From IMG/VR virus record IMGVR_UViG_3300019124_000001, positions 99,788 through 163,787 of that record: a DNA stretch of 64,000 bases. One strand, written 5' to 3'. Positions 1,305-54,065 of the stretch are shown piece by piece. The DNA is from a virus (lineage: Duplodnaviria > Caudoviricetes). A program made the position numbers and the translations under genes. The notes under the pieces were generated by a model, which was not told the DNA's origin, made no database searches, and was given only the letters and a program-made list of their open reading frames with translations. The first letter of the stretch is position 1, and each line of letters begins with the position of its first letter.

Positions 1305-2024
1305 ATGAGAATCGGTGGACGCGGAATGAAGGTAGTTAATCATATGCCATTTAAGGATATCTTGAAGATTACACAAATGGCAGTTAGTCGGTTTCGGGAT
1401 TGCGGTCTGACTAGAATTGGAGGTGGGAAGTTCGGAGATGTATATCTGTATATCGACAGCAATAGTCAGAAATATGCAATCAAAGTATGGAAAGTATACT
1501 ACGACAATGAAGATCACGACATCGAAAATTTGCTTCGTCTTCAAGGTAGTAAGTATTTTCCTAAGATTTACATGTACAAGAAGAGAAGTTTTCTCGTAAT
1601 GGAGTATTTTGATGGCAGAACTTTAGCGGAAATTTTCAGCAAACATGATAGAGAGAGGGCTGACAAAATCGGCAAACCTGCAATCAAATACATTCATGAT
1701 GGCAACAAGTCTATCGAAGAAGCATTTAAGTTTGCGGTTTCTCGTGGGCTTGCACCAAACGATACTCACGGCAATAACATTATAGTTACGAAAGAAGGAG
1801 AACTAAAATTTATAGACGTTGGCTTATTCGAGGAACTTAAAGTTAGATACCACAGATGGCACGACTATAATGGCAAGGTGGTTTATAATAACAATAAGGA
1901 TCTCGTTGAAAGCATAAAACGGGACATTACAAACTGCTTCGAGCTTGAATACGCAAAAGGCCAATATCAATCAGCGTTTAATGCATTAGTTGAACAACAA
2001 GCAAAAGAGCTAGCCTCTATTTAA
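1305..2024 (+). CDS. Ser/Thr protein kinase-like protein (paralogue 2)
   Basis: GGGKFG, YAIK, DTHGNN, IDVG; strongly similar to paralogue 1; ATG at 1305. Confidence 0.85.
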   Translation: MRIGGRGMKVVNHMPFKDILKITQMAVSRFRDCGLTRIGGGKFGDVYLYIDSNSQKYAIKVWKVYYDNEDHDIENLLRLQGSKYFPKIYMYKKRSFLVMEYFDGRTLAEIFSKHDRERADKIGKPAIKYIHDGNKSIEEAFKFAVSRGLAPNDTHGNNIIVTKEGELKFIDVGLFEELKVRYHRWHDYNGKVVYNNNKDLVESIKRDITNCFELEYAKGQYQSAFNALVEQQAKELASI

Positions 2025-2061
2025 CTATCAAACAACAACTATGTATGGTAGGTGATAGGCA

Positions 2062-2787
2062 TTGAAACAAGATAAAGGAATGCAGATACTTGGAGACATT
2101 GATCTGATAGATGCTACTATGATCATGAAAATGGCTATCAGTCGATTTTCAGATTGTGATCTTAAATGTATTGGAGAAGGTGTCTATGGTCGCGTTCTGC
2201 TTTATGTGGGACGAGAGGGTCGGAAGTATGCCATAAAGGTATTCAAGAGCAACTATTCGATGCTCGATATGGATGACATAGACAAACTCTTGGCTTTGCA
2301 AGGTTGTGAACACTACCCAAAAGTATTTATGTATCAACGCGGATCGTTTATGGTGACTGAATTTATTGATGGTCGCACTCTTTATGAAATTCACTGCATT
2401 CAAGAGCGCTCTTTTGCAAACAGACTTCGCAAACCAATCATAGACAAAATGGAAAATCCTATTGAACAATACAAAAATGCATACAAATATGCTTTATCTC
2501 GTGGATTCGCACCTTATGATACGCATGGTGATAACATTATGGTAACTCCGCATGGTAGACTTGTAATCGTTGATGTTGGCTGTTTTGCTAAGTTTCACCG
2601 TAAACTAATTATCCCAATGTGGGCTTCTGAAAACAAGAAGAAGTTTTCTCAATCGGAACTTCTTCAAGCTCTGAAAGCTGATAAAGGAAATTTTTGGGGA
2701 TACCACAATGGTGTGGAAGCCATCAAAGAGTGCGAGATTCATTTAAAAACACACAAAACAAATGGACAGGAGTTGCAACCAGCATGA
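2062..2787 (+). CDS. Ser/Thr protein kinase-like protein (paralogue 3)
   Basis: GEGVYG, YAIK, DTHGDN, VDVG. Confidence 0.85.
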   Translation: MKQDKGMQILGDIDLIDATMIMKMAISRFSDCDLKCIGEGVYGRVLLYVGREGRKYAIKVFKSNYSMLDMDDIDKLLALQGCEHYPKVFMYQRGSFMVTEFIDGRTLYEIHCIQERSFANRLRKPIIDKMENPIEQYKNAYKYALSRGFAPYDTHGDNIMVTPHGRLVIVDVGCFAKFHRKLIIPMWASENKKKFSQSELLQALKADKGNFWGYHNGVEAIKECEIHLKTHKTNGQELQPA

Positions 2788-3080
2788 TCGTAAACTTTGA
2801 AAACATCTCCGCAGAAAAGAAAAAGGTATACGCAGAAGATATCGTTCTCTTTGCAGAAGAAGTATTTGGAATGGATGGACGTGTCATGACCATCTCTGAA
2901 GGACATACCATTCAGCGAGTCAAACTACAGACATGGGAACGTGTTCGACTTCGTAATTACCAAGAGTACACAACCACCGCAACATCGTACCATGCGTATG
3001 TTCGACCAACAAATATCGAAAATGACTATCTCCGCGAAGTTTACGAAGCGCACCAAAGTCTGCTGAAAGAGGTGACTTAA
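2784..3080 (+). CDS. Hypothetical protein
   Basis: ATG at 2784 overlapping kinase 3 stop (ATGA), AGGAG RBS. Confidence 0.6.
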   Translation: MIVNFENISAEKKKVYAEDIVLFAEEVFGMDGRVMTISEGHTIQRVKLQTWERVRLRNYQEYTTTATSYHAYVRPTNIENDYLREVYEAHQSLLKEVT

Positions 3081-3226
3081 TGCAAAATAATAAGGAGTTG
3101 TTGGCTAATGCTATGGAAGCAATAGCAAAAATTGACCTTGATCAAGAAAGTTCTGCATTCGAATGTCATCTGAAACTTGCCCTAGAATAATTGGAAGATT
3201 GTTACAGATGGGCTAATGAAGGTTAG
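3080..3226 (+). pseudogene. Small ORF, possibly interrupted by a premature TAA at 3188
   Basis: GAGGTG RBS; 36 codons, TAA, then 11 more sense codons to an in-frame TAG (3224) inside a palindromic site. Confidence 0.35.
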
Positions 3227-3282
3227 ATGAAAATGCACTTGTTTAATAAAATATCGGTTTGATAGACAGAAGGGGGACAAGT

Positions 3283-3489
3283 ATGTATACCGATTGGGAG
3301 CTTGAAAACACCGTAAAAACGATGGAAAGTAACTTTATTGACAGAGGTTGTGTCAATATCGTCAATCTCGATGAAGCAAAGAAGTTTTCCACTTATCTCA
3401 AAATCAAAGGTTATCAAGTAGAGATCAAAGACAGCAACCTTTATTTTCCTGTTGCTAGAAGCTACGATGTAATCAAAGTAGACCGATAA
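3283..3489 (+). CDS. Small hypothetical protein (site-bounded)
   Basis: AGGGGG RBS, ATG 3283; stop TAA lies in the left arm of the 3483 site. Confidence 0.7.
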   Translation: MYTDWELENTVKTMESNFIDRGCVNIVNLDEAKKFSTYLKIKGYQVEIKDSNLYFPVARSYDVIKVDR

Positions 3490-3522
3490 AACGAAAATTT
3501 CATCTAAAGGAGGTGAGCTACA

Positions 3523-3606
3523 GTGAAAAAACGAAGAACCAATCCGCTTGCTTTGGGTCTTGGAGTTTTTGTTGGCTTTGTAGTTTATCACATCTTGACA
3601 AAATAG
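3523..3606 (+). CDS. 27-aa single-pass membrane peptide
   Basis: AAGGAGGTG RBS right after the site; MKKRRTNPLALGLGVFVGFVVYHILTK. Confidence 0.6.
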   Translation: MKKRRTNPLALGLGVFVGFVVYHILTK

Positions 3607-3618
3607 GGAGTGTTCGCA

Positions 3619-3957
3619 ATGTCCTTGCGAATTTTGGATGGCATTATTGCAGAAAAGGTACACGGATGGGAGTGGCACCAAGTCACTGAGAACCGAAAAA
3701 TCTTAGTGCCACCGATTAACGATCATCGTAGCACTTGGGCGGCAATGTGGGACGAGAATGGTTTTCCGCATTGGTTGCCAGAATATCGACATGAAGCAAT
3801 TGGGATTCGATTCGACTCGACATATGAATCTGGTCGGGTGACTGGATTTGACGAAGATGGAGACATTTTCGTTGAGATTTTCTTAAAATCGACTGGTCAG
3901 ACCTATACTGAGCTTTGGTTTAAGGAATCTTTGCTCAATAGAGAACTACTAAGGTAG
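3619..3957 (+). CDS. Hypothetical protein, N-terminus like phage ABA-sandwich domain
   Basis: LDGIIAEKVHGW...LPEY pattern; stop TAG in the left arm of the 3955 site. Confidence 0.55.
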   Translation: MSLRILDGIIAEKVHGWEWHQVTENRKILVPPINDHRSTWAAMWDENGFPHWLPEYRHEAIGIRFDSTYESGRVTGFDEDGDIFVEIFLKSTGQTYTELWFKESLLNRELLR

Positions 3958-3993
3958 ACAAAACTTAGTTTTCATCTAAAGGGGAGTACAAAA

Positions 3994-4293
3994 ATGTACA
4001 AAATTGGTGATGCAGTAATGATTTCGAGGAACTTGGCAGAACGTTATAATATCAATCATGAACATAGGAATGGAATTGTAACAAGTGTAGAGGGTTATAT
4101 GCTAAAGATTTCAAATCCATTATGGAAAAATCAAGAAGGTTGTTTGATTGGTAGTTTCAATGAATCAGATTTCGATGTCATTAACTCCCATAGTGTTATT
4201 ATAGGCAAAGATATACTTGATCATCTTCTTAATTTGCCTATTGTTGAAATTTCCGCTAAATTATCGAACGGAAAGCAGATTGAAATTCGATAA
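3994..4293 (+). CDS. Hypothetical protein (SH3/KOW-like MYKIGDAV start), site-bounded
   Basis: AAGGGGAG RBS after site; stop in the next site. Confidence 0.7.
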   Translation: MYKIGDAVMISRNLAERYNINHEHRNGIVTSVEGYMLKISNPLWKNQEGCLIGSFNESDFDVINSHSVIIGKDILDHLLNLPIVEISAKLSNGKQIEIR

Positions 4294-4324
4294 AACTACG
4301 ATTTCATCTAAGGAGGAACAACCA

Positions 4325-4504
4325 TTGGAGATGTTGACAGATGTAATGGGAATTGCAAATACTGCACTTGGTTTCTACGTGTTTGGCAAGCTGTCTGAGC
4401 GTAAAAGAACTAAGCATGTTAAATTGTACCCCTTGTTGGTGGTCTGTGTGATTGGTACTATTGTTCTTGATTTTCTGCATTTCGTTATTAAAGTAGATTT
4501 CTAA
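4325..4504 (+). CDS. Small two-helix membrane protein
   Basis: AAGGAGG RBS after the 4287 site; two hydrophobic segments; start at 4325 or 4331. Confidence 0.6.
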   Translation: MEMLTDVMGIANTALGFYVFGKLSERKRTKHVKLYPLLVVCVIGTIVLDFLHFVIKVDF

Positions 4505-4522
4505 ACCAAGGAGCATACAATA

Positions 4523-5584
4523 ATGTCAAATACCGCCAATTCCGTGCTGTTCGAAGATTATAATGCAAAACTCGAAAAGTTTGAAGTGTACAACTCGGAT
4601 GGAATCTCTGTACTTGGTTTCTATCCAATTAAAACGATTCTTGCAGAAGACCTTGGCAATGCGCTCCGCAAATACGTTATCGAGTCTGGTTTCAAGTATT
4701 GGAAATCGTATCGCAATGAGTTTGGGAAAAACATTCTCGTAGGGCTTCGAAAGGGCAATAGACGCCATCATAAGAACAATCAGGTGTTCGTTTACATATC
4801 GAAGGTAGACGATGCATTTGACTTTATTGTTGAAGACGCTCGTACACGTACACTGATGGCAGAAATTAGAGCAAGCAACATTCAAAGTGCGGCAATAGAA
4901 TTCGCAAAAATTGCCAAAAAGGATGTAGTAAAATTCCATTCCAAGAACACCTTGGCAACAATCTACGAGATTGGAGGAGAGCTTTACCTATTCCGCATTA
5001 AACCATTCATGAACGATGAAGGACAGAATAAACCGCAGAATCAAGCACCGATGGAGGAAATTTATTGGGGCGAAAGCCAAATTGATGGATCATGTTCAGA
5101 AATCATTGAAGGGATTATTGATGCGGCTGACAAGGCTGGTATTCTAGAAGACATTCCCGTTGAAGATGGAATGTTCAAACTTCATGCGACAGTAAATACC
5201 TCTATCTACCAAGAACTACAAGACGTTGTTCTTAAAGTTCAGTCAGGACAAAAGATTCGTTCTTCTCGAACCGAACGCGAACTTCTGCTTGGAGAAGATG
5301 GTGACTTCAGAGAGGTATTGCATTTCTCAAAATCGCAAATTCGACCGTACAATCTTTATACTAATCGAGTTAATTTCTCTGCATCGTTGTTTGAAGAAAA
5401 ATGGACAATCGTTTCTCAACCATGCAGTTTCGTAGATGCTATGCGTCATATGCAAGCTGGATGCACGATCTACTGTATCAATGATGGTTTGATGTATAAA
5501 GCCGAAACGTCAATCGGAATGTCTCTTAACGCATTTGCTTCCGCTAAGTGGTTCTATGAACCAGTAGAACTTCCGTTCGAATAA
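4523..5584 (+). CDS. Hypothetical multi-domain phage protein
   Basis: 353-aa ORF with AAGGAG RBS. Confidence 0.7.
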   Translation: MSNTANSVLFEDYNAKLEKFEVYNSDGISVLGFYPIKTILAEDLGNALRKYVIESGFKYWKSYRNEFGKNILVGLRKGNRRHHKNNQVFVYISKVDDAFDFIVEDARTRTLMAEIRASNIQSAAIEFAKIAKKDVVKFHSKNTLATIYEIGGELYLFRIKPFMNDEGQNKPQNQAPMEEIYWGESQIDGSCSEIIEGIIDAADKAGILEDIPVEDGMFKLHATVNTSIYQELQDVVLKVQSGQKIRSSRTERELLLGEDGDFREVLHFSKSQIRPYNLYTNRVNFSASLFEEKWTIVSQPCSFVDAMRHMQAGCTIYCINDGLMYKAETSIGMSLNAFASAKWFYEPVELPFE

Positions 5585-5608
5585 GATGGATCAAGAAAGG
5601 AAATTATC

Positions 5609-5794
5609 ATGAACAACCAAGATGATCCAATCTTTGACAAATTAAGTCGTATTCAGAAATATATTGTCGAGCGATTCAATGGTGTTCATGTAGACATATA
5701 TTATTCTGAAGGTCATCAAGGCGCATTGGTGGTTCAAGCAGGAAAGCCACTTATTTTGCAGAACGTAATTCATGTAGTCAAAGTGCGAATTTAG
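5609..5794 (+). CDS. Hypothetical protein
   Basis: 61-aa ORF, AAGGA RBS. Confidence 0.5.
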   Translation: MNNQDDPIFDKLSRIQKYIVERFNGVHVDIYYSEGHQGALVVQAGKPLILQNVIHVVKVRI

Positions 5795-5807
5795 GGAGGA
5801 TACCAAG

Positions 5808-5999
5808 ATGAAAATTCAAGTTGTTGGCTTGCGCTTTAATAGTGCTGATGAATGCGCTACTGCTCTTTTTGAGGCGCATTTGAAAATTGGATTTATTAAG
5901 GGCGAAATTGAACTGCCTTCCGAATTAAGGTATTGCGGAAATCAAACTGTGATATCCGAATATATTAAACGTGCCCTTAAATCAGAATTAATTTACTGA
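5808..5999 (+). CDS. Hypothetical protein
   Basis: 63-aa ORF, GGAGG RBS. Confidence 0.6.
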   Translation: MKIQVVGLRFNSADECATALFEAHLKIGFIKGEIELPSELRYCGNQTVISEYIKRALKSELIY

Positions 6000-6006
6000 A
6001 AGGTAG

Positions 6007-7704
6007 TTGAAAATTATGGCTTGGAAGAAACGTTCTCCGCAAATCGCATATTTAGAATCTGACCATGTTATCACAAAACTTGCCAAGATTAGAGGTATCA
6101 AGTCTACAGAGCTTGACAGATACATGAACCCAACATCGAAAGAACTTCATTCGCCATTCCTAATGAAGAATATTGAAATTGCTTCCGAAAGAATTGTAGA
6201 GGCTATTCGCAAAAATCAACGTATCGCAATCAGCAATGATTGTGATACGGATGGTGTTTGCGGAATGGCTCAGTTTGTCAGATACCTTCGTGATTGTGAA
6301 CATAAAAATTATTACGTAACACATAATGAACGTTCACGAGGTCACGGTGTGCATAATCAGCTTGACAAAATCGAAAATGGCACCGAACTTTTGGTCATTA
6401 TTGACTCATCATCGACAGAAGATTCTAAGGATGCTATTTTTTCGATAATTTCTCGTGGTATTGACGTAATCATTCTTGATCACCATGATGTTGAAGTAGA
6501 TTATCACGATTTGATTCCAAGAGTAATCATGGTTAACCCACAACAAATTGATTGCTTTTATCCAAACAAGCATATCTCCGGTTCTACCGTTGTCTACAAA
6601 ACATTACAAATGGTAGACGACATTATTGGTATGGGAACTGTTGACGATTACCTTGATCTTGTTGCGGTTGGCATGTATGCAGACGTTATGCGTGTAGATG
6701 TGCTTGAAAACCGATATTTGATCATGCAGGGAATGAAAAATATTCGAAATATTGGCTTAATGTCTATTCTGAAAGTGAATGACAAATTAAAGGAACCAGT
6801 CACGTCTCAAACCATTGGATTCACTTTGGCTCCTTCTATCAACGGAACCATGCGATTAGATAAGATCGAGTACGTAATAAAACTCCTCTTGGAAGATGAC
6901 GCATTAGTAGCGTACAATATTGCCAAAGACATTAAAAAATTCAACGATCAACGAAAGGCAGAGCAAAAGGAGATTGTCGAACGTTATCTGTCTCATTATG
7001 TTAACCCTGATAACAAGGTTGTCGTAGTCATTGACAAAGATGCTTCCAAAGGTTATAACGGCTTGGTGGCGACAACTTTGGCTGAAAAGTTTAAGCGTCC
7101 TGCTATCGTTATGCATGTCAATCAAGATGGCGAATGCGCTGGTTCTTTCCGTGCTTACGGAGACTTTAAAATGAAAAAGTTTCTCGTAAGTAATTTTAAA
7201 TTTGGGAAATATGCCAACACGATCAAATACGCTGTTGGTCACGAACAAGCTGGCGGTATTGGTGTACATGTATCCAATCTTAACGCACTCGTTAGTGGCA
7301 TGAATGCTGAACTTGCGAATGTTCATTTTGACACTGATTTAGAGTATGATCTTGAAATTGCGGCTGACGATCTTACTACGTCATTCATCCAACAAGTAGA
7401 AAAGTTTAACTTCTTGACAGGCAAGGGGTTTCCTACAGCCACATTCAAAGTGACAGGTTGTACCGTTTTGAAGCGTGACGTACTAGGCAAAGAACGGAAG
7501 GACACCGTAAAGATCACGTGCGATAACAATCTTGCTTTAATGAAGTTTCGAACTGACTCAGATTGGGGATTAGACATCATTGATGAAGATGCTTGGGTTA
7601 ATACTGTAGATGTAATCGGGCAGTTAAATGTTAATGTTTTTGTAACCCGATCTGGTCGGCGTGTAACCAATCAGGTTTTTGTTGAGGACTACAAAAAAGT
7701 TTGA
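6007..7704 (+). CDS. recJ: RecJ-like ssDNA exonuclease (DHH/DHHA1)
   Basis: DCDTDG, ILDHH, YADV, GSFR, GHEQAGG motifs. Confidence 0.9.
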   Translation: MKIMAWKKRSPQIAYLESDHVITKLAKIRGIKSTELDRYMNPTSKELHSPFLMKNIEIASERIVEAIRKNQRIAISNDCDTDGVCGMAQFVRYLRDCEHKNYYVTHNERSRGHGVHNQLDKIENGTELLVIIDSSSTEDSKDAIFSIISRGIDVIILDHHDVEVDYHDLIPRVIMVNPQQIDCFYPNKHISGSTVVYKTLQMVDDIIGMGTVDDYLDLVAVGMYADVMRVDVLENRYLIMQGMKNIRNIGLMSILKVNDKLKEPVTSQTIGFTLAPSINGTMRLDKIEYVIKLLLEDDALVAYNIAKDIKKFNDQRKAEQKEIVERYLSHYVNPDNKVVVVIDKDASKGYNGLVATTLAEKFKRPAIVMHVNQDGECAGSFRAYGDFKMKKFLVSNFKFGKYANTIKYAVGHEQAGGIGVHVSNLNALVSGMNAELANVHFDTDLEYDLEIAADDLTTSFIQQVEKFNFLTGKGFPTATFKVTGCTVLKRDVLGKERKDTVKITCDNNLALMKFRTDSDWGLDIIDEDAWVNTVDVIGQLNVNVFVTRSGRRVTNQVFVEDYKKV

Positions 7705-7712
7705 TAGAGTAG

Positions 7713-7742
7713 TTGACAAACAACAACTATGTATGGTACTAT
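7713..7742 (+). promoter_or_regulatory. SigA-type promoter whose spacer is the repeat box
   Basis: TTGACA-AACAACAACTATGTATGG(18)-TACTAT, extended -10. Confidence 0.8.
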
Positions 7743-7788
7743 AAAAATGTGAGTTACGACAAATACGAACGAGAGGGGAACATTTAAG

Positions 7789-8064
7789 ATGGACTCGAAA
7801 TTTTTGTTAAAAGGCGAAGAAACAACCATCACCCTGCAAGACGAAGATGGCAAAGATTTGGTATGTACGATGATTTGCACCTTTGAAAATGAAGGCAATA
7901 TCTATGCTGTTCTAGTTGTTAACGATGACAACTCTGACGATGGATATATGTTGCGTATTGACAATGACGGAGAACACGATTACCTTGTTGAAATTGAAGA
8001 CGAAGAAGAGTGGCAACGTGCGGTGGACGCATACAGCGTCATTGCAACGCTCGACGAAGCATAA
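7789..8064 (+). CDS. DUF1292-like acidic protein
   Basis: ITLQDEDG...YAVL...LVEIEDEEEW pattern. Confidence 0.7.
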   Translation: MDSKFLLKGEETTITLQDEDGKDLVCTMICTFENEGNIYAVLVVNDDNSDDGYMLRIDNDGEHDYLVEIEDEEEWQRAVDAYSVIATLDEA

Positions 8065-8078
8065 AGGAGGAAACAAAA

Positions 8079-8522
8079 ATGTATTTTGCAAAAATCGCAA
8101 TCCTTTCCCTATTCTGCGGAGGAGTTGCTTGGTACATGATTGCACGTTGGTTTAAACTGAAGCACAAGAAGAAAGTATCCGAAATTCATGCGAACCAATT
8201 AAAAGAACTTGACGAAGAAGTTCGGGACACGGTGCCTCAATGGGATGTTTCAACCAAGAAACAAGATCAGCCGAAGTCCACAGAAGTCTCTATTGTAGCT
8301 CTAAACACGAACATTCAACCAGTCCAACAATATGCTCGAAAACAAGCAAATCCCAAGGTAAAAACTTCTGTGTCGATTAACGACAACACATACTATGGCG
8401 AATCGCCATCGAAGCCTTCAAGTTACCGCAGTGGTTCGTCGTCGTGGTCTTCTGATTCTTCATCGTCTTCCGATTCGTGGTCTTCGTCTTCTGATTCTTC
8501 ATCGTCGAGTTCGTGCGACTAA
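8079..8522 (+). CDS. Membrane-anchored protein with Ser-rich C-terminal tail
   Basis: AAGGAGG RBS, N-terminal TM, SSSWSSDSSSSS repeats. Confidence 0.7.
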   Translation: MYFAKIAILSLFCGGVAWYMIARWFKLKHKKKVSEIHANQLKELDEEVRDTVPQWDVSTKKQDQPKSTEVSIVALNTNIQPVQQYARKQANPKVKTSVSINDNTYYGESPSKPSSYRSGSSSWSSDSSSSSDSWSSSSDSSSSSSCD

Positions 8523-8535
8523 CAACAACTATGCT

Positions 8536-8563
8536 AGAAGAGGGCTTTTGCCCTCTTCTTTCT
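8536..8563 (+). terminator. Intrinsic terminator
   Basis: AGAAGAGGGC-TTTT-GCCCTCTTCT followed by a short T run. Confidence 0.65.
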
Positions 8564-8580
8564 ATTGAGGAGGAAACATT

Positions 8581-9240
8581 TTGAACGAAATTACCGAACT
8601 TCAAGAGCTTGATCTTCCTGCTGAAATCTATTTCATGCGTGGCTTTGCTTTGGGCAGTGGGTACAATGAACTTTATAGGTCTATTAGTTGTGCGCTCATC
8701 GAACACCGCAAACAAGCTCGTAATGGTGGTCAACCGTATGCAACACACCCGATTCGATGTGCCCACATGTTGGTAACTCACGGTGTTCGCGATGAGCGTA
8801 TCCTGTCTACAGTTGTTCTGCATGATGTACCTGAAGATTGTGGCGCAAGCAAAGAAGACCTGATTCATATGTATGGAATCAGTGAAGATGTTGCTTACTT
8901 AGCAACAGTGCTCGACAAAAGACGGTACAAATCCACTGAGGATTACTACTTGTCTCTTCGACAGTACATTGAAACTATTCTTACAAAAATTGTAGACCGT
9001 TGTCATAATCTTGCTACAATGGTTAACGTTTTCTCTGAAAAAAGGATGAAGAAATATATCGAGGAGACAGAAGAGTATGTGATTCCCCTCTGTCAATATG
9101 CAGTTCTCCATCATCCCGAATATTCGAACGTAGTATTTGCATTAAAGCGTCATATCGTTGATATGCTCACCATTCTAAAAGCCCTTCTTCCAAAGGATCA
9201 TTTGGACGAAGAAATGATAGGAGCGACATGTTCATTATGA
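8581..9240 (+). CDS. HD-domain (p)ppGpp hydrolase-like protein (small alarmone hydrolase/Mesh1 type)
   Basis: HRKQAR..G.PYATHP, LHDVPED, KIVDRCHN motifs of the RelA/SpoT hydrolase domain; no synthetase domain. Confidence 0.85.
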   Translation: MNEITELQELDLPAEIYFMRGFALGSGYNELYRSISCALIEHRKQARNGGQPYATHPIRCAHMLVTHGVRDERILSTVVLHDVPEDCGASKEDLIHMYGISEDVAYLATVLDKRRYKSTEDYYLSLRQYIETILTKIVDRCHNLATMVNVFSEKRMKKYIEETEEYVIPLCQYAVLHHPEYSNVVFALKRHIVDMLTILKALLPKDHLDEEMIGATCSL

Positions 9241-9413
9241 TTTGGGTTTTATATCGAAACGGCGAACTGTTCGGAAATGGCTCAAACATTCGTGCCTATG
9301 CTTCCGAAAAGAGGGCAATGGCAAACGCATTGGCTATTGTTCGTAATGGAATTGGGACATATAAGATTGAAGAATTTAAGGCTGTACCCTATATGCCTAA
9401 AGAGGTGAAATAG
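9228..9413 (+). CDS. Hypothetical protein
   Basis: Short ORF with AGGAG RBS. Confidence 0.5.
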   Translation: MFIMIWVLYRNGELFGNGSNIRAYASEKRAMANALAIVRNGIGTYKIEEFKAVPYMPKEVK

Positions 9414-9416
9414 CAT

Positions 9417-9626
9417 ATGCCGCTAATCCTGCTGATTGTTTCAATTGGTTTGGCATTTGTGCCAATGTGGTTCTTTATTTTGGTTGCGTGTATAGCAACA
9501 GTCTACGTTGTTATTATTGCATCTCAACTGAACTGCATATTGGAAGCATTCATTGCAATGGTGTTCGTATGGATTATCCTTTATGGATTAAGATACCTAA
9601 TTCATCACTTGCAATGGGTGAACTAG
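9417..9626 (+). CDS. Small membrane protein
   Basis: Very hydrophobic 69 aa, GAGGTG RBS. Confidence 0.6.
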   Translation: MPLILLIVSIGLAFVPMWFFILVACIATVYVVIIASQLNCILEAFIAMVFVWIILYGLRYLIHHLQWVN

Positions 9627-9644
9627 AAGGAGCGAAAAACAAAC

Positions 9645-10388
9645 ATGGAACGAAAACCTGTAGCAAAAATGCTTGTTGGTTCACACAACTACAACTTGCA
9701 TAATGAGAATTCTGACCGTGATTATAAGCTATTCGTCCTACCAACGTATGACGACTTATATCATGGAACTACCGATCACTTTAAAACCAAGTCTTCGATT
9801 ACGAATACAGAGGATGTAGAAGTCCACGATGTTCGCAGATTGCCGCATTTGCTGGACAAGGCAAATGTGAACTTCATCGAAACTCTTTTCTCTGTATCTC
9901 GTACAACGTGGGACGAAACCACCTACTACACCGATCAATTGTTCGCAATGCGCGAAGAACTTGCGCGTATGAATCTGCCGTATTTGTACAATGCTTCTTT
10001 CGGCATGTTTATCGAACAGAAGAAAAAGTGGGAGAAAGGCGACTACACCGACCATAAGAAAGCGTATCAAGCCCTTCGAATTCTTGATTTTCTTGTTCGA
10101 TACGAGCGCAACAAGTTTGAATCTTTTGGTCAGGCCATCTATTACGAAGCAAGCGACCCAATGCGTAGCTATCTCTTGAAAGCAAAAGCAGGGGAAGTTT
10201 CAATGGGCGATATGAACGTATCTTTGGCTAATTACGAGAACCACGTCAAACTAATTCGTACATCCTACATGTCTCACGAGCGGAATGAAGAAACAAAAAA
10301 GCGTCTTGATAAACTTGTCTACGAAATGGTTGCAATCGAGATCGAGAACGAGTTTATGCGAAAAAAAGACGAAAGCATTTTGTTCTAA
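9645..10388 (+). CDS. Pol-beta superfamily nucleotidyltransferase (RlaP/PF10127-like)
   Basis: VGSHNYNL...SDRD (GS...DxD) motif, KAN.NF.E.L, KK.Y.ALR. Confidence 0.75.
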   Translation: MERKPVAKMLVGSHNYNLHNENSDRDYKLFVLPTYDDLYHGTTDHFKTKSSITNTEDVEVHDVRRLPHLLDKANVNFIETLFSVSRTTWDETTYYTDQLFAMREELARMNLPYLYNASFGMFIEQKKKWEKGDYTDHKKAYQALRILDFLVRYERNKFESFGQAIYYEASDPMRSYLLKAKAGEVSMGDMNVSLANYENHVKLIRTSYMSHERNEETKKRLDKLVYEMVAIEIENEFMRKKDESILF

Positions 10389-10471
10389 TACCACGCGTAA
10401 GACCTCTGTTTGGATGACATACATTTTGAAATAACTCTGTAAATTGTTGTAGCTCTCGTCAAAGATCGTTG

Positions 10472-10501
10472 TTGCGCAAGGTTGCCGCCAGATGGTATCA
10501 T
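10472..10501 (+). promoter_or_regulatory. Candidate SigA promoter of nrd operon
   Basis: TTGCGC-18-TATCAT with extended -10 TG. Confidence 0.5.
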
Positions 10502-10573
10502 AGTAGAGTATCAATTGTACAGAAGGTCTTCGTGTCTCTTTACAAACAACAACTATGTATGGTGGTGGACATC

Positions 10574-10948
10574 TTGATAGTGGCATATGATTCGAGGACG
10601 GGCAACGTAAAGAGGTTCGTTTCTAAGCTCGATATGGATTCTATTCAAATAACAGAAGATTCTGTCATTAATGAGCCGTTTGTGTTGATCACGTTTACAA
10701 CAGGCTTCGGTCAAGTCCCACCTAAAACTGCCAAGTTTTTAGAAAGAAACCATCGTAACCTTATTGCTGTTTCTGCGAGTGGGAACAAAAACTGGGGAGA
10801 CTCTTTCGCAAAGAGTGCAGATATTATTTCAGAATCGTTTGGCGTTCCAGTTATCCTGAAGTTTGAATTGTCTGGAACGCCAAACGATGTAGTTTTCTTC
10901 AAAGAGAGGGTGCAAGAAATTGGCAAGCAGACACATCGAACTAAATAA
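10574..10948 (+). CDS. nrdI: Class Ib RNR flavodoxin NrdI
   Basis: YDSRTGNVKRF, TTGFGQVP, SGNKNWG; TTG start after GGTGG RBS. Confidence 0.95.
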   Translation: MIVAYDSRTGNVKRFVSKLDMDSIQITEDSVINEPFVLITFTTGFGQVPPKTAKFLERNHRNLIAVSASGNKNWGDSFAKSADIISESFGVPVILKFELSGTPNDVVFFKERVQEIGKQTHRTK

Positions 10949-13004
10949 TGAAATCATGGTGAAGCTAAATGGCTTCTATCAAATCGAGAAAGACAAAGAA
11001 GCTGTAAGAGAATTCGAAAAAGAAGTTAAAGAAAAGATGGTTACGTTTAAGTCATTGCATGACAAACTTCGCTATCTAATTGAAAACGACTTCTATTATG
11101 ATGTCCTAGCTGACTACAGCATAAAAGACATTCAGGAAGTATGGGCGATTCCTTACTCTTACAATTTCAAGTTTCAATCTTATATGGCGATTTCAAAATT
11201 CTATAAAGATTACGCCATGAAGACGAATGACAAACAGAAATATCTTGAAACTTACGAAGACCGAATTGCAATAGTTGCTCTTTACTTGGCTCGTGGCGAA
11301 GTATGGAGGGCGAAATTCTATGCGACACAAATGATCAAACAGAATTATCAGCCAGCAACACCAACGTTTCTAAACGCAGGAAAAGCAAGACGGGGAGAGA
11401 TGGTTTCGTGTTTCTTGTTGGAAGTTGACGATTCATTGAACGCGATTACGTTCCATGAAGGAGTTGCACAGCAACTTTCAAAAATTGGCGGCGGTGTGGC
11501 GATCAATTTGTCTCTACTACGAGGAGAACGCGACCCAATCAAAGGAATCAAAAACGTTGCAAAAGGTGTCTTGCCGATTGCGAAGAAGCTCGAAATGGCA
11601 TTCGCATACGCTGATCAAATGGGACAGCGCAAAGGTTCTGGTGCGGCTTATCTAAATATCTTCCACATCGACTCTCCTGCATTCTTGGATACAAAGAAAA
11701 TCAATGCAGATGAGCGTATTCGCCTAAAAACTCTATCAATCGGTCTTATTATTCCGTCGAAGTTCATGGAGCTTGCAGAGCGTGGAGAAGATTTCTATAC
11801 GTTCTCGCCGTATGATGTTTTCAAAAAATACGGCATCCATTTGGATAATATGGACATGGACATTTGGTATGATCGTCTAGTAGAAGACGAAGATATTCGC
11901 AAGGAACAACTGAGTGCTCGTGACTTCATGACAAAAATTGCTCAAACGCAAATGGAATCTGGATATCCGTATATTATGTTCAAAGATAATGCAAACAAGT
12001 GGCATTCTTTGAAAGATATTGGCATGGTCAAAATGTCCAATTTGTGTACTGAAATCTTCCAATTGCAGGAGACTTCCATTATCAATGATTACGGAATTCC
12101 CGATGAAATCAAGCGCGATATCAATTGCAACCTTGGCTCCTTGAACATCGTTAACATAATGGAGAATAAAGAGATCAAGGAAGCAGTATTTGCTGGCATG
12201 GATATGTTAACGGCTGTGTCCGACATGACAAGCATTGCGAACGCTCCTTCTGTCAAGAAAGCCAATGATGAGCTACACTCCGTTGGACTTGGTTTGATGA
12301 ATTTACATGGTTTCTTTGCTAAAAATCGCATTTACTACGAGAGCAAAGAGGCAATCGACTTTGTTCGTGCGTTAGGTATGACCGTAAACTATTATTCAAT
12401 TTTACGTTCTATGACAATAGCTAAGGAACGTAAACAGAAATTTAAAGATTTTGAAAAATCTGCATATGCAGATGGGCGATACTTCAGGATGTATTTTGTC
12501 GAAGACTTCTCTCCAAAGACAGACAAGATCAAAAAGTTGTTCGAAGGCATTTATATTCCAACTATCGAAGATTGGAAACGACTTGCCAATGAAGTAGCAG
12601 TACATGGATTGTATCATGCCTATCGACTTGCCGTGGCACCTACGCAGTCGATTTCGTATATTCAGAATGCGACTTCCTCTGTTATGCCAGTAGTTGAAAT
12701 CATTGAAGAACGCAAATACGGTAACGCAACTACGTTTTACCCGATGCCGTTCCTGTCTCCTGAAACTGTATTCTTCTACAAATCAGCATACGATGTCAAC
12801 ATGTTCAAGCTGATTGATCTGATTGCTGAACTACAGCGCCACATCGACCAAGGAATCTCGACGATCTTGTACGTGAATAGCAACACCAGCACGTATGACT
12901 TGGCTCGTTACTACATCTATGCACATAAGCGCGGATTAAAGTCGCTATACTATACGCGTACACGCAATTTATCAGTAGAAGAATGTACATCTTGTGCGGT
13001 TTAA
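10920..13004 (+). CDS. nrdE: Class Ib ribonucleotide reductase alpha subunit
   Basis: QPATPTFLNAG, VSCFLL, SNLCTEI, KSLYY, C-terminal CTSC; no intein or intron seen. Confidence 0.97.
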   Translation: MASRHIELNNEIMVKLNGFYQIEKDKEAVREFEKEVKEKMVTFKSLHDKLRYLIENDFYYDVLADYSIKDIQEVWAIPYSYNFKFQSYMAISKFYKDYAMKTNDKQKYLETYEDRIAIVALYLARGEVWRAKFYATQMIKQNYQPATPTFLNAGKARRGEMVSCFLLEVDDSLNAITFHEGVAQQLSKIGGGVAINLSLLRGERDPIKGIKNVAKGVLPIAKKLEMAFAYADQMGQRKGSGAAYLNIFHIDSPAFLDTKKINADERIRLKTLSIGLIIPSKFMELAERGEDFYTFSPYDVFKKYGIHLDNMDMDIWYDRLVEDEDIRKEQLSARDFMTKIAQTQMESGYPYIMFKDNANKWHSLKDIGMVKMSNLCTEIFQLQETSIINDYGIPDEIKRDINCNLGSLNIVNIMENKEIKEAVFAGMDMLTAVSDMTSIANAPSVKKANDELHSVGLGLMNLHGFFAKNRIYYESKEAIDFVRALGMTVNYYSILRSMTIAKERKQKFKDFEKSAYADGRYFRMYFVEDFSPKTDKIKKLFEGIYIPTIEDWKRLANEVAVHGLYHAYRLAVAPTQSISYIQNATSSVMPVVEIIEERKYGNATTFYPMPFLSPETVFFYKSAYDVNMFKLIDLIAELQRHIDQGISTILYVNSNTSTYDLARYYIYAHKRGLKSLYYTRTRNLSVEECTSCAV

Positions 13005-13013
13005 GGAAGGTGA

Positions 13014-14021
13014 ATGAATATGGGAAACGTTAAAGCGGTTAATTGGAATATTCCTGACGATGATTTTACTTTAGATTTCTGGCAAATAAATATTCGCCAA
13101 TTTTGGGTAGACACAGAGATACCGATTTCTGATGATAAGCTATCTTGGAAAAATGATCTAACAGAACTAGAACGCATGACTTATATGCGCATTCTTGGTG
13201 GTCTGACAGGTCTTGATACCGAACAAGGTGGAGTGGGTATGCCTTTAATTGCGCAGTACACACAAGGTCTGCAACGCAAAGCTACTCTGATTTTCCAAGG
13301 AGCAATGGAACAGATTCACGCGAAATCCTATTCGACGATCTTCACGACTCTGGCTACTACAGAAGAGATCAACGAAACGTTCGAGTGGGTTGAGCAGAAC
13401 AAGTATATCCAAAAGAAGATTGAATTGATTTCAGAATACTACAACAATATTCGAAAGCCGCGTGACTATTACATGGCTATGGTTGCTTCAGTCTTCTTGG
13501 AGAGTTTCTTGTTTTATAGTGGATTCTTCTATCCGTTATATCTTGCTGGTCAGGGTAAAATGGTAGCTTCTGGCGAAATCATTAACCTGATTATTCGCGA
13601 CGAGAGCATTCATGGCACATACATTGGCACTCTTGCACAGGAAGAGTTTGCTAAGTTTAGCAAACGAACGCAGGAGAAATTGAAGTCAGAAGTTTACGAA
13701 TTGCTGGAAGAACTGTATGTAAACGAATGTGCGTACACGGATGAATTGTATACTCCGATTGGCTTGCAAGAGGAAGTAAAAAAGTTCATTCGATACAACG
13801 CCAACAAAGCGTTGATGAATCTTGGATACGAACCGTTTTTCCCTGAAGAAGCGGTTAACCAAATCGTTCTTAATGGTTTGCGCACAGAAACAAAAAACCA
13901 CGACTTCTTTTCTACCAAGGGTAACGGATACGTTAAAACTCTTAACGTAATTCCGCTGGACGATGAAGCATTCAAGTTCGAATGGCTTGAAGAACAACAA
14001 GCATTTCCAGTCTATTTCTAA
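13014..14021 (+). CDS. nrdF: Class Ib ribonucleotide reductase beta subunit
   Basis: LTGLDTEQ, EQIHAKSY, LESFLFYSGF, RDESIHG, HDFFS. Confidence 0.97.
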   Translation: MNMGNVKAVNWNIPDDDFTLDFWQINIRQFWVDTEIPISDDKLSWKNDLTELERMTYMRILGGLTGLDTEQGGVGMPLIAQYTQGLQRKATLIFQGAMEQIHAKSYSTIFTTLATTEEINETFEWVEQNKYIQKKIELISEYYNNIRKPRDYYMAMVASVFLESFLFYSGFFYPLYLAGQGKMVASGEIINLIIRDESIHGTYIGTLAQEEFAKFSKRTQEKLKSEVYELLEELYVNECAYTDELYTPIGLQEEVKKFIRYNANKALMNLGYEPFFPEEAVNQIVLNGLRTETKNHDFFSTKGNGYVKTLNVIPLDDEAFKFEWLEEQQAFPVYF

Positions 14022-14035
14022 GGAGGATAACTAAA

Positions 14036-14290: not shown

Positions 14291-14339
14291 TGGACTTCCA
14301 GCGTTATTAAAATTACCGAATAAACGGAGGATAAACAAA

Positions 14340-15071: not shown

Positions 15072-15123
15072 TAAAAACGGGTGGGTTTCGGCTCACCCAA
15101 AACTTCCAAAAGGAGCAACTAGT

Positions 15124-15357: not shown

Positions 15358-15360
15358 ACG

Positions 15361-16897: not shown

Positions 16898-16898
16898 A

Positions 16899-19970: not shown

Positions 19971-20924
19971 ATGAAAGAAATTAAAATAGTCAGCCTATTC
20001 TCTGGTGTAGGAGGGTTGGACTACGGTTTTCATAAATATCCACAAGCAAAATTTGTTTTCGCAAATGATATAAACGAGTTTGCATGTTACACATATCACT
20101 CGTACTTCGGTTTCAAGCCTATGTGTGCTGATATTGAACACGTGGACATCAACATGATTCCAGAGTGCGATCTTGTGATTGCAGGAAGTCCAAACAATGG
20201 ATTTAGCGTCGAAAATCAGATTAACAACTCTGTCAATCATCCATCCAATAAGTTGGTTGCCAAATTTGTTGAGATAGTCAAAATCAAAAATCCAAATGTG
20301 TTCATATTTGAAAATGTACCAGAGATTATGACAGTTGGTGGCGGCAAATACGCTCGATTCATCACAGAATCACTGTCCGATTATCATATTGAAATATATG
20401 AGGTCAACGCTTTGAATTATAGTGTTCCACAAAAACGAACAAGCGTCTTATTTGTTGGAAGCAAGATTGGACGGATTGAACGTCCAGTTCAAGATACTGT
20501 GACGTATACTGTCAGAGATGCCTTCGAAGGAATTCATAGCGGCATTCCAAATCAATCTGACGTAAATCCACATCGGAAGATTACTCTTGAACGAATGTCT
20601 TATGTACCAGCAGGGGGAAACATTAACGACATTCCAGAGGAGTTGCGACCGAAAGGCAATCACAGCGACCGCTATCGTCGATTAGAGTATGATAAGCCAA
20701 GCATAACAATTGCCAATCCACGAAAAGCTGTTATATTGCATCCCTTGCATGACAGAATCTTAACTGTTAGAGAATGTGCGAGAATCCAATCTTTCCCTGA
20801 CGATTTCTTGTTCTACGGTAGCTTGGATGAAAGACAGCAATTTGTCGCGAATGCATTTCCTCCGCGTCTCAGTGTTAAAATTGCTGATGTAGTGATGAAA
20901 GCATTTAATGAGAAATTAGATTAA
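19971..20924 (+). CDS. DNA cytosine-5 methyltransferase homologue lacking the catalytic Cys
   Basis: Motif I LFSGVGG, VI FENV, IX-X RECARIQSFP...NAFPP; motif IV reads GSPNNGFS instead of GxPCxxFS. Confidence 0.85.
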   Translation: MKEIKIVSLFSGVGGLDYGFHKYPQAKFVFANDINEFACYTYHSYFGFKPMCADIEHVDINMIPECDLVIAGSPNNGFSVENQINNSVNHPSNKLVAKFVEIVKIKNPNVFIFENVPEIMTVGGGKYARFITESLSDYHIEIYEVNALNYSVPQKRTSVLFVGSKIGRIERPVQDTVTYTVRDAFEGIHSGIPNQSDVNPHRKITLERMSYVPAGGNINDIPEELRPKGNHSDRYRRLEYDKPSITIANPRKAVILHPLHDRILTVRECARIQSFPDDFLFYGSLDERQQFVANAFPPRLSVKIADVVMKAFNEKLD

Positions 20925-21317
20925 ACAAAAATTTTATCTAAGGAGAGATCAACTTGAAGGCTCACGAGGCTATTTTTCAAGTCAAATGCGTCAATCAAGG
21001 CAATAATTCCTCTATCTATGTCAACGGAATTTATGATGTTTTCAAAGAAGTCGGTGGATACTACTTAATTATCAATGCACGTGGCAATATGTGCGAGTAT
21101 CCAAAAGAGTTGTTCGAACGAATAAAAATTACGCCTAACGTTGACACGATTGGTCTACTGATCGAGCAAGCATTTCAGCAAAGCCGAAACGAACTTATTC
21201 GCATTCTGGAAAGCGAAACACTAGATGGTATCCAAAAAGCAACTGATGACTTTGTTTATCTCCACAAACTTCGCCAATCTGCGAAGAGATAGTTAGATGA
21301 AATCTCACTTTTATCAA
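20917..21317 (+). repeat. Two palindromic sites bracketing one gene
   Basis: TAGATTAAA-CAAAAA-TTTTATCTA (20917-20940) and TAGATGAAA-TCTCAC-TTTTATCAA (21294-21317). Confidence 0.8.
20954..21292 (+). CDS. Hypothetical protein (SH3-like N-terminus), site-bounded
   Basis: AAGGAG RBS directly after site. Confidence 0.65.
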   Translation: MKAHEAIFQVKCVNQGNNSSIYVNGIYDVFKEVGGYYLIINARGNMCEYPKELFERIKITPNVDTIGLLIEQAFQQSRNELIRILESETLDGIQKATDDFVYLHKLRQSAKR

Positions 21318-35134: not shown

Positions 35135-35313
35135 TGTTTTACCAAATAATATAAGCCTACATAGAAATTACCTCCTTTGATAAATATTTATCTTATTTTA
35201 ACTTATTGGTGCTAATAAATATATCCATTATTACATGCTTAGTTTAATGCAAAGAATATAAATATATAGTGGGATTTTCTGCCTATTTTATTTTCATAAA
35301 ATGCCAATTTCAT

Positions 35314-35568
35314 CTATGCAATTACAATACCTTGCGTGTAGTCAAACAGTCGAAGATCGTATTCAACACCTTGAAAATGAATATGATCGCCACGGTCAAG
35401 CGTGATATACAGTTCTCCAATCGTCTCACTCAGCAAGCCCTCGATTACATCTTGCAATCTAGTTATATCATTAACTAGTATAACGGTAGCATAATGAGCA
35501 TTTCCCATTTCGCCCATTAACATAAGATATTGGCCTTCATAAAATCTTTTTAACATTTCGTTCAACAT
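35314..35568 (-). CDS. Hypothetical protein
   Basis: 84 aa, GGAGGTG RBS. Confidence 0.6.
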   Translation of the reverse strand: MLNEMLKRFYEGQYLMLMGEMGNAHYATVILVNDITRLQDVIEGLLSETIGELYITLDRGDHIHFQGVEYDLRLFDYTQGIVIA

Positions 35569-51901: not shown

Positions 51902-52879
51902 TTAAATTTCAAACTTCTTATTCGATTCTTTTAACTTTTTGTTGTTACGCTTAATATAATGGTCTTGTGTAACTTGTGTGCCACTGTGATTCAGCAGAGC
52001 CGAAACCTCTTCCAAAGGCATACCCATTTGATATTTCAAATTACTTCCAGAATGTCGCAAATCGTGACAATGCAATTCTGGAATATTGATCATTGCACCA
52101 ATTTTCTTAATCCAACTACCCTGCAAAGTGCCTTTTTCGACCTTTTTCCATTCACCCTTGTACTTGGTGATAAAAAGATATTCCGATTCAATCTTTTCCT
52201 TTTTTCGATATGCAAGCCACTTTTTAATAAGTTCAAACGTATATTCAGAAGGGAATAGATCAACAGTTTTGCCTTCTTTTTCAAGTACCCCGTTAACTTC
52301 TTTCTCTTCAAAGTTGATTTGTTCAATGCGAATATTCGAAATTGCATTTGCACGCGCCATCGTAGATAGACCAAATTCGAAGAACAATTCTAGTTGTAAA
52401 TTTCCTTCCTTCTTCAAGCCACTACGAATCATTGCGATTTGTTCTTCTGTCAAATAAGTCTGTTTCACTTGCAATTTCTCGTCTTTTCGTACTTTAGGGC
52501 GTTCAATGTATTCCATTGGGTCTTCGGTCATTTTTCTCTTCTTACGTAGAAGTTTGAAGAAAGAAGATATACAACTTAAACGTCTTTGTATGCGTCTTTC
52601 GTTATTGCCCAAAGTATCTCGACAGAATGCTACAAACGCTTCGAGCATTTCAGAAATTTCTTCTGCATCAAATGACATTAAATCTTGATTGTCATACTCT
52701 TCCAATATGAATACTAACCACTGATTAAAATCTGATTCATATGAGTACTTCGTAGAGTCCGAAAGTGTCATCGCCTTTGAGTTAAAGTAATTTTTTATAT
52801 GACGTTTATTTTTAGGATTTACTTGATCCAGCTTTTCAGGAGTAGCGTAATGTACGTACTTTCGTTTATTTCCCGACAT
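51902..52879 (-). CDS. Tyrosine recombinase (XerC/D-like)
   Basis: R (TMAR), K (EKEGK), HDLRH, LNHS, QDHY catalytic residues all present. Confidence 0.92.
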   Translation of the reverse strand: MSGNKRKYVHYATPEKLDQVNPKNKRHIKNYFNSKAMTLSDSTKYSYESDFNQWLVFILEEYDNQDLMSFDAEEISEMLEAFVAFCRDTLGNNERRIQRRLSCISSFFKLLRKKRKMTEDPMEYIERPKVRKDEKLQVKQTYLTEEQIAMIRSGLKKEGNLQLELFFEFGLSTMARANAISNIRIEQINFEEKEVNGVLEKEGKTVDLFPSEYTFELIKKWLAYRKKEKIESEYLFITKYKGEWKKVEKGTLQGSWIKKIGAMINIPELHCHDLRHSGSNLKYQMGMPLEEVSALLNHSGTQVTQDHYIKRNNKKLKESNKKFEI

Positions 52880-54041: not shown

Positions 54042-54065
54042 TAGATGAAAGTCACATTTTATCTA
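54042..54065 (-). repeat. Palindromic site (best consensus copy)
   Basis: - strand TAGATAAAA-TGTGAC-TTTCATCTA. Confidence 0.85.

Follow-up and report, generated by a model that had tools for sequence, protein, structure and literature searches.

The stretch of DNA examined here, hereafter the window, consists of 64,000 nucleotides and spans bases 99788–163787 of a virus record (IMGVR_UViG_3300019124_000001) that is 163,787 bp long and has terminal repeats. The replication and virion genes of this phage are collinear with those of Brevibacillus phage Sundance, with 50.7% identity for DNA polymerase III alpha and 56% for an integrase encoded in the tail-gene module, and they are collinear, more distantly, with those of Bacillus phage SPbeta. 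Between small genes near the left end of the window, and at further gene junctions along the genome, lies a 24-bp element of the form TAGATRAAA-N6-TTTYATCTA (TAGATRAAANNNNNNTTTYATCTA), in which two inverted 9-bp arms enclose a 6-bp core. A preliminary description of the window, made from its letters, had taken these elements for the boundaries of an integron-like array of exchangeable cassettes. Here we describe the element, its counterparts in SPbeta-like phages and the homology breaks that coincide with it, and we weigh the readings of its function.

A 24-bp palindrome between genes

Allowing at most two mismatches, the element occurs seven times in the window (Table 1) against 0.04 expected, and none of 100 shuffled sequences reached this count. 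The whole genome contains 11 sites at the same threshold (0.07 expected) and 14 with up to three mismatches (0.9 expected); eight further sites lie outside the window, at genome positions 38193, 48717, 48902, 55934, 70489, 70868, 84264 and 84748, for a total of about 15. The inner core ATRAAA-N6-TTTYAT is present in 13 copies at a spacer of 6 bp and in no more than one copy at every other spacer from 2 to 11 bp, and the layout of inverted 9-bp arms about a 6-bp core, which had been likened to that of tyrosine-recombinase sites, is fixed in all 13 of these matches. All six full sites listed in the preliminary description were recovered, and the match at 35293 is an extra, weaker copy. The two positions given there as degenerate copies are not full sites: at 3224 a left arm stands alone, a right arm being found only at a spacer of 9 bp and with three mismatches, and at 3243 no site was recovered at up to three mismatches. 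The two arms of a site usually differ at one base, such that 12 of the 13 core sites carry GATGAAA on one arm and GATAAAA on the other, one carries the G form twice and none carries the A form twice. Which of the two arms comes first is mixed relative to the direction of transcription.

Table 1. Junction sites and associated features, in window coordinates (ORF, open reading frame; RBS, ribosome-binding site; aa, amino acids).
Feature	Position	Strand	Description
Lone left arm (half-site)	3224..3232	.	TAGATGAAA; no proper right arm at spacer 6
Junction site	3483..3506	.	CCGATAAAA-CGAAAA-TTTCATCTA; TAA stop of upstream ORF in left arm; RBS AAGGAGG 2 nt past right arm
Junction site	3955..3978	.	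TAGACAAAA-CTTAGT-TTTCATCTA; TAG stop in left arm, then RBS AAGGGGAG
Junction site	4287..4310	.	TCGATAAAA-CTACGA-TTTCATCTA; TAA stop in left arm; RBS AAGGAGG abuts right arm
Junction site	20917..20940	.	TAGATTAAA-CAAAAA-TTTTATCTA; immediately 3' of C5 cytosine methyltransferase gene (19971-20924)
Junction site	21294..21317	.	TAGATGAAA-TCTCAC-TTTTATCAA; 112-aa ORF on one side, PcfJ-like gene on the other
Weaker site copy	35293..35316	.	TTCATAAAA-TGCCAA-TTTCATCTA; 2 mismatches, core intact; region of gene-orientation switch
Perfect site	54042..54065	.	TAGATGAAA-GTCACA-TTTTATCTA; 1163 bp upstream of tail-module recombinase start; after gp030-like virion gene
Xer-like tyrosine recombinase, candidate cognate protein	51902..52879	-	325 aa; tail module; R, K, HxxR, H, Y present
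68-aa ORF	3283..3489	+	3' end within site 3483; no family match
Segment between sites 3483 and 3955	3523..3957	+	27-aa hydrophobic ORF (3523-3606) and 112-aa ORF (3619-3957)
99-aa ORF (MYKIGD...)	3994..4293	+	Between sites 3955 and 4287
59-aa hydrophobic ORF	4325..4504	+	After site 4287; no site 3' of it
SPBRE-like element	499, 2024, 7712, 10538, 17320, 18145, 26776		TTGACAAACAACAACTATGTATGGTAA; -35 hexamer, conserved spacer, extended -10

The relation of the sites to the flanking genes agrees with what had been proposed, namely that the left arm supplies the stop codon of the gene before it and that the RBS of the next gene follows the right arm. Nine of 13 sites have the stop codon of an ORF of 25 or more codons in the left arm or just ahead of it, and are followed within ~30 nt by a start codon and its RBS. 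The enclosed genes are small, as described; the further statement that they are unrelated needs amendment, given that the 112-aa ORF at 3619–3957 has a 39%-identical, 115-aa paralogue at genome 70523–70870 that is likewise flanked by two sites. Small genes between two sites thus belong to recurring families, of which this pair is one and ORFs that start with MYKxGD are another. The latter also occur between two sites in the related genomes G004 and G007 (G numbers are our labels for genomes of the comparison), although BLASTP found no match between the 99-aa ORF of the window and these ORFs at E up to 0.01.

In polycistronic transcripts the element would not make a stable structure. Predicted RNA folds of the seven window sites have energies of -0.6 to -4.6 kcal/mol, with z-scores of -0.5 to +1.3 relative to shuffled sequences, and the hairpin formed by the two arms differs from the predicted fold at four of the seven. 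Across the phage's sites and those of its relatives, the arms are conserved as sequence and no compensatory changes were seen; covariation is absent because the arms are invariant. Matches resembling sigma-70-type promoters and terminators are no more frequent around the sites than expected by chance, and no such match coincides with a site. Given the poor RNA fold, the lack of a promoter or terminator excess and the sequence-conserved arms, the element is best read as a site on double-stranded DNA.

Position-specific cores and homology breaks in related phages

Relatives were located through the tail-module integrase and through the motif, and were scored for the core that is shared group-wide, ATAAAA-N6-TTTTAT, at spacer 6 only. 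Copies number 17 in G009, 14 in G010, 13 in G012, 12 in G004, 10 in G007 and five in G005. SPbeta has 14 (0.4 in simulations), phi3Ts has 16, and SPR, Goe11, Goe13, SPbetaL1 and SPbetaL5 have 13–18 each. Sundance contains three copies, and G006 and G008 contain one each, that of G006 being the only one in 141 kb. The arms are of the A form on both sides at nearly every site of G004, G007, G005, G009, G010 and G012, with one or two A/G exceptions in SPbeta and phi3Ts, and the G/A pair of the present phage recurs in all three Sundance sites and in the single site of G006. Upstream of the tail integrase, the site has its G arm nearer to the operon and its A arm farther away in each of the three G/A phages. 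The exact G-form motif gave 29 single matches in viral contigs, with single copies only in the three of five large contigs that were searched, and in genome contigs the matches listed were all single copies in unrelated bacteria. Neither megablast against phages nor scans of viral contigs seeded with three proteins yielded a close relative of this phage. In the literature searched, the element was not found described, and the arm sequences themselves gave unrelated hits only; the 1999 paper on the SPbeta genome lies outside that search and may mention it.

The 6-bp cores of the window sites are all distinct from one another, as had been noted, and this had been taken to mean that recombination would have to tolerate mismatched cores. 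Such tolerance would be unneeded in exchange between genomes, as cores at the same position match there. G004 and G007, which share ~75% DNA identity, have 10 sites at the same positions, and at these the arms are identical at 180 of 180 bases and the cores at 57 of 60, within flanks that show ~50% ungapped identity. In Spbetavirus, a given core is found again at its own map position from genome to genome, and cores are identical in many pairs drawn from SPbeta, phi3Ts and the Goe phages. The core is kept even where the DNA on both sides of the site is unrelated, as is the case for the TATTCC site of phi3Ts and SPbeta and for the GATCAA site of G010 and Goe13. Because cores differ by position within a genome and match between genomes, the compatible partners would be the same-position sites of two genomes.

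Two further observations concern the orientation of cores. One same-position site reads TGATAA in SPbeta (99494), G010, Goe11, Goe13 and L1, and TTATCA in phi3Ts (89341) and SPbetaL5 (110422), with unrelated flanks; this looks like a flipped core. At the left end of the G009 contig, the sites at 8–31 and 176–199 have cores that are reverse complements of each other and agree over 21 bases when one site is inverted; they may delimit an invertible 144-bp segment or represent an assembly artefact of the contig end. Apparent core matches between G009 and G012 were set aside as chance resemblances because these genomes are unrelated at the DNA level.

The preliminary description had expected that, if the sites are boundaries of exchange, gains and losses of genes in relatives would break at them. 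This is borne out to the base pair for gain, loss and replacement alike. Sharp ends of homology were collected over all ordered pairs of eight Spbetavirus genomes and clustered; 83 of the 1465 ends lie within 5 bp of a site, against 5.8 expected for a uniform distribution and 16.8 if the intergenic ends are scattered over intergenic DNA, and 71 of the 118 sites were used at least once. An end is found in 79 of the 98 site-bearing intergenic gaps (81%) and in 498 of the 1159 other gaps (43%), and among gaps of 15–120 bp the corresponding numbers are 40 of 57 and 287 of 688. A comparison is offered by SPBRE (SPbeta repeated element), a regulatory element of similar length in the same genomes: gaps that hold SPBRE show no significant excess of breaks (27 of 52, versus 471 of 1107; p=0.12).

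In the pair phi3Ts and SPbeta, exact blocks of 1 kb or more have 18 ends, six of which fall inside a site or within 1 bp of one. Eight ends abut real divergence, and five of the eight are at sites and none at SPBRE. In the alignments the switch occurs inside the 18-bp core, such that the outer bases of the arm follow the flank to which each belongs and identity begins in the core. In G004 and G007, each of the 10 shared sites is bordered by homologous DNA on one side only, an indel or unrelated sequence being found within 37 bp on the opposite side, and all seven site junctions tested lie near a gap edge, compared with 77 of 242 other junctions (p=4e-4, with crude gene calls). One 231-bp insert has the left arm directly repeated at its flanks.

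There are 27 segments that one pair of cores encloses in two or more genomes, and for six of these slots at least one genome pair differs in content to the point of being unrelated. The four short slots, examined in detail, each have such a pair, and one outer flank is then 100% identical, with the exception of one slot in which all three segments are near the unrelated baseline.

A candidate recombinase and proposed in-register exchange

We consider it probable that the sites are protein-bound DNA junction sites that are preferentially used as joints in the exchange of modules, whatever the mechanism of that exchange. A more specific proposal, which we favor tentatively and with slightly less than even confidence, is that they are the position-specific core sites of the conserved Xer-like tyrosine recombinase of the tail module and serve in-register exchange between related phages; the proposal is drawn from sequence comparisons. 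The earlier notion of exchangeable boundaries would survive in this form, with the tyrosine-recombinase layout and the breaks at sites in relatives in its favor, and without cassettes of the integron type.

The natural comparison is with dif, loxP and recombinase-mediated cassette exchange, in which two inverted arms surround a core of 6–8 bp and recombining partners need identical cores, so that sites with different cores do not cross-react. The elements described here resemble Xer and Cre core sites in their inverted arms, their 6-bp core and the nearby gene for an Xer-like recombinase with all catalytic residues. They differ from dif and loxP in that 10–18 natural sites occur per genome, each with a core conserved by map position, in their arm length of 9 bp and in being known from sequence alone.

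In the proposed mechanism, the 24-bp elements would act as double-stranded linker sites between genes or groups of genes, and the shared arms (TAGATRAAA/TTTYATCTA, with the inner core ATAAAA...TTTTAT common to the group) would be bound by a phage protein. The likeliest binder would be the catalytically intact Xer-like recombinase, which each of these phages has in its tail-gene module, with a “home” site ~1 kb upstream of its operon. Since cores differ at every position of one genome, the sites within a genome would be mutually incompatible, and this incompatibility would prevent deletions and inversions. When two genomes reside in one cell, as phage and phage or as phage and prophage, same-position sites would match and could exchange the adjoining DNA in register, by site-specific recombination rather than by way of short homology. 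Use of one site would swap everything on one side and use of two sites would swap the segment between them, with gene order undisturbed in either case. Modules and small accessory genes would be reassorted while their order is preserved, much as in cassette exchange with heterospecific lox sites. That SPbeta-like phages as a group possess such a built-in system of modular exchange, consisting of a late-expressed Xer-like recombinase and 10–18 heterospecific sites, one at each module junction, with cores compatible across the genus, is possible and somewhat more speculative again.

Several properties make the product of 51902–52879 the candidate. It matches the Pfam family Phage_integrase (PF00589) with 72.5 bits, its best NCBIfam models are of the Xer type, and its catalytic residues align with those of a solved XerA-type recombinase chain. 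Of the three proteins with an integrase fold that the phage encodes (one of the MrpR family at genome 64220–65197, a YopP-like protein at genome 19637–20680 and the window protein), only the last has the complete catalytic set; the YopP-like protein had no match in the search of solved structures. The tail-module recombinase is 55–61% identical across eight viral contigs. A site lies 1.0–1.5 kb upstream of the tail integrase in six of seven Sundance-like genomes (G000, G004, G007, G005, G006 and Sundance) and 3.1 kb upstream in SPbeta and G010, and in G006 it is the only core site of the genome. The gene, with neighbours at 52881–54025, is placed between tail-completion genes and the tape-measure gene. 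This is the position of yomM in SPbeta, and tblastn detected no sequence similarity to YomM. We know of no function for yomM.

Against assigning the sites to this enzyme stand a number of observations. Sundance, G006 and G008 carry the recombinase and yet have only one to three sites, with none upstream of the gene in G008. Genomes rich and poor in the motif do not differ in which of the three integrase-fold genes they carry, and this comparison is uninformative as to which protein is involved because all genomes have the two other such genes as well. What connects the sites with the recombinase is geometry and one conserved neighbourhood. The G/A arm asymmetry of this genome is not accounted for, and a position right before the RBS would equally suit a regulatory site. 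As no close relative of this phage was found, exchange at the sites of the window itself is extrapolated from the family.

The break data also have features that weigh on the same side. The great majority of homology ends, 1382 of 1465 (94%), are away from sites, and the excess at the level of gaps is only about two-fold; moreover, counts across genomes are not independent, as one historical event may be seen in several genomes, and genes were called crudely as longest ORFs. Four clean insertions beside sites in G004 and G007 have neither site nor arm at the far end, and at least one crossover per event must therefore have been other than site-specific. Among the slots examined, none has both outer flanks homologous and only its content replaced. 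In the three laboratory hybrids between phi3Ts and SPbeta, the crossovers are located within long stretches of identity, as expected of ordinary homologous recombination; these stretches begin or end at sites, and the crossovers therefore cannot be placed. The preprint on the hybrids describes a single non-homologous junction “following yosA”, and site 116411 of SPbeta is found after that gene, 87 bp from its 3' end.

The stretch is present in four DNA runs of one study and in no listed RNA run, and the contigs of these four showed no joints at the sites, in a type of data that cannot show rare forms. The joints that appeared when these contigs were aligned to the window were all due to the 28-bp SPBRE-like repeat of this phage. 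In run X4, window positions 2000–21900 had a summed contig depth of ~10,000 in an assembly broken into pieces of a few hundred bases, which suggests a very abundant population with fine-scale variants.

The joints of phage mosaics have been debated for decades, with random illegitimate joining followed by selection on one side and special linker sequences on the other. In the present case, a short palindrome that is strictly conserved, with a core particular to its position, is found at joints and persists when the DNA on both sides of it has been replaced. If the recombinase of the tail module, in the position of YomM, acts on these sites, an orphan enzyme and an orphan motif would be explained together, and the sites would offer a set of naturally orthogonal recombination sites. 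Phages would then possess a natural equivalent of recombinase-mediated cassette exchange, and the sites would represent, in molecular terms, the “linker” invoked by the theory of modular phage evolution. The proposal can be tested by standard genetics, since the element is present in two phages of Bacillus subtilis 168, SPbeta and phi3T, of which laboratory hybrids have already been made.

Alternative readings and related elements

The strongest alternative, which we regard as unlikely but deserving of attention, is that the sites are operators or roadblocks of a non-catalytic protein that insulate or silence genes within operons, with the homology breaks as a by-product of an 18–24-bp island of identity. 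The protein could be a helix-turn-helix regulator or the YopP-like integrase-fold protein, which on inspection by eye appears to have HxxK where HxxR is expected, and the crossovers would be made by the homologous-recombination proteins of the phage; among the products of these phages are Sak4-like annealing proteins, RecJ and a homologue of exonuclease V. The location of the sites in short gaps within operons, directly before an RBS and without sigma-70-type promoters above chance, is consistent with such a role, and the geometry of an 18-bp ATAAAA-N6-TTTTAT would also suit a dimeric helix-turn-helix protein. That most homology ends are off the sites, that insertions stand beside sites without a second site and that the excess is modest fit this reading too. 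It does not explain why the SPBRE, which is regulatory and about as long, lacks a significant excess of breaks and takes none of the eight sharp ends in phi3Ts and SPbeta. A regulator that reads the arms would also leave unexplained that each position has its own core, 95–100% of which is kept amid unrelated flanks. Furthermore, insertions can part a site from either of its neighbour genes, and the site is therefore not tied to one gene. Should the sites nonetheless be operators, they would reveal a second, undescribed regulatory network of SPbeta-like phages beside that of MrpR and SPBRE.

Repressor sites in comparable places are represented by the stoperators of mycobacteriophage L5, many of which lie in short gaps within operons; these are 13 bp long, asymmetric and orientation-dependent. 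The present sites share with them the many copies in short gaps inside operons, and differ in being palindromic with position-specific cores. Sites of the host factors Fur, ComK and DnaA and the host dif site do not fit the spacing. The promoter of a phage RNA polymerase was likewise dropped as a candidate: the element is palindromic and its orientation mixed, and YonO of SPbeta starts late transcription at one place.

The integron-like reading, in which a gene and its site are excised together as a circle and reinserted within the genome by a recombinase tolerant of core mismatches, is now very improbable. Its attraction is the presence of small same-strand gene arrays punctuated by sites (3483, 3955 and 4287 in the window; 35599, 35859, 36034 and 36211 in G012), with paralogous small genes between two sites at two places in the genome, imperfect palindromes between promoterless genes and a tyrosine recombinase, all of which recall integron attC sites and IntI. 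The recombinase, however, lacks the integron signature, scoring 22.3 bits with the integron-integrase model TIGR02249 against a cut-off of 265 while its best models are Xer-type, and the sites, at 24 bp, are much shorter than attC and without attC-like structure. Inserted genes bring no site of their own, the far ends of insertions being bare and the 231-bp insert repeating the left arm only. Cores are conserved by position and not by cassette. Finally, the contigs of the four runs contained no joints at sites, although rare forms would be invisible in contigs.

A role as an RNA hairpin, be it in processing, in stabilising the 5' end or in translational control before the RBS, is similarly improbable. 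The location between stop codon and RBS, the perfect 9-bp stems of the relatives and the annotation of two copies as stem-loops in the SPbeta record would agree with it. The folding results given above do not, and in the transcript about half of the sites of this genome would have an A-C mismatch in mid-stem; nor would sequence-conserved arms free of compensatory changes, or an orientation that is not fixed relative to transcription, be expected of a structured RNA.

Among phage elements that repeat between genes, two further kinds invite comparison. The PeSL elements (promoter early stem-loop) of T4-type phages are intergenic repeats that flank small non-essential genes, with indels and replacements between relatives there, as well as homology recombination between the mutually similar copies, each a promoter with a terminator stem-loop, that extends to events within one genome with mini-circles as products (PMC2839356). 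The present element resembles PeSL as a short repeated intergenic sequence that marks joints between related phages, and differs as a 24-bp palindrome with its own core at each position and with promoter and terminator signals not above chance. The extended start-associated sequences (ESAS) of Cluster K mycobacteriophages are imperfect inverted repeats upstream of many translation starts that are conserved across subclusters and have no assigned function, with 17-bp arms, a spacer of 4–13 bp, one orientation for nearly all copies and an association with a 13-bp start-associated sequence (PMC3203893). Likeness to ESAS is seen in the inverted-repeat layout and the position just before translation starts, whereas here 9-bp arms enclose a spacer of constant 6-bp length and no second motif is present.

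The preliminary description had offered, as its own alternative, operators of a repressor such as MrpR of SPbeta. MrpR has an integrase fold, and its chromatin affinity purification sequencing (ChAP-seq) profile has ten peaks in SPbeta, all at promoters that bear SPBRE (PMC10516654). When SPBRE was derived from the SPbeta record, its copies fell at exactly the ten published MrpR target genes; 10 of the 14 SPbeta palindromes have no SPBRE nearby, and none of these 10 is among the published targets. SPBRE and the palindrome are alike as repeated intergenic elements of one phage group that are often found near an RBS; they differ in sequence, SPBRE carries -35 and -10 hexamers, and both co-exist in each genome. 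The phage studied here has its own 28-bp SPBRE-like element (TTGACAAACAACAACTATGTATGGTAA) in 23 genome copies, seven of them in the window, and this element, rather than the palindrome, is likely from its sequence to be the target of the MrpR homologue. The homologue at genome 64220–65197 matches PF22822 (67 bits) and phrog_5830 (E=1e-66) and has a degenerate catalytic domain. Despite the presence of this protein and the integrase fold of the family, palindromes that serve as operators of an MrpR-type master repressor are hardly credible, as the ChAP-seq targets coincide with SPBRE and the phage carries a distinct SPBRE-like element.

Some neighbouring genes deserve mention. A gene for a C5 cytosine methyltransferase adjoins a site in this phage, where it is 5' of 20917, and also in SPbeta, where it is 3' of 113660 (mtbP, SPbeta 113660–115046). 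Just 5' of the site array, a protein-kinase-like gene at window 2062–2787 matches phrog_18305 (E=5e-15), with Pfam Pkinase below its cut-off. The protein best conserved relative to Sundance (66% identity) is a 689-residue product of genome 73057–75126 (L046), which matches phrog_1735 (E=2e-188) and no Pfam family. Lastly, a second palindrome, TCAACA-N3-TGTTGA, occurs at 11 places between genome positions 24000 and 56637, outside the window, for example at L047/L048, and the copy at genome 55967 overlaps a TTGACA hexamer; these copies are probably an early promoter-operator set.

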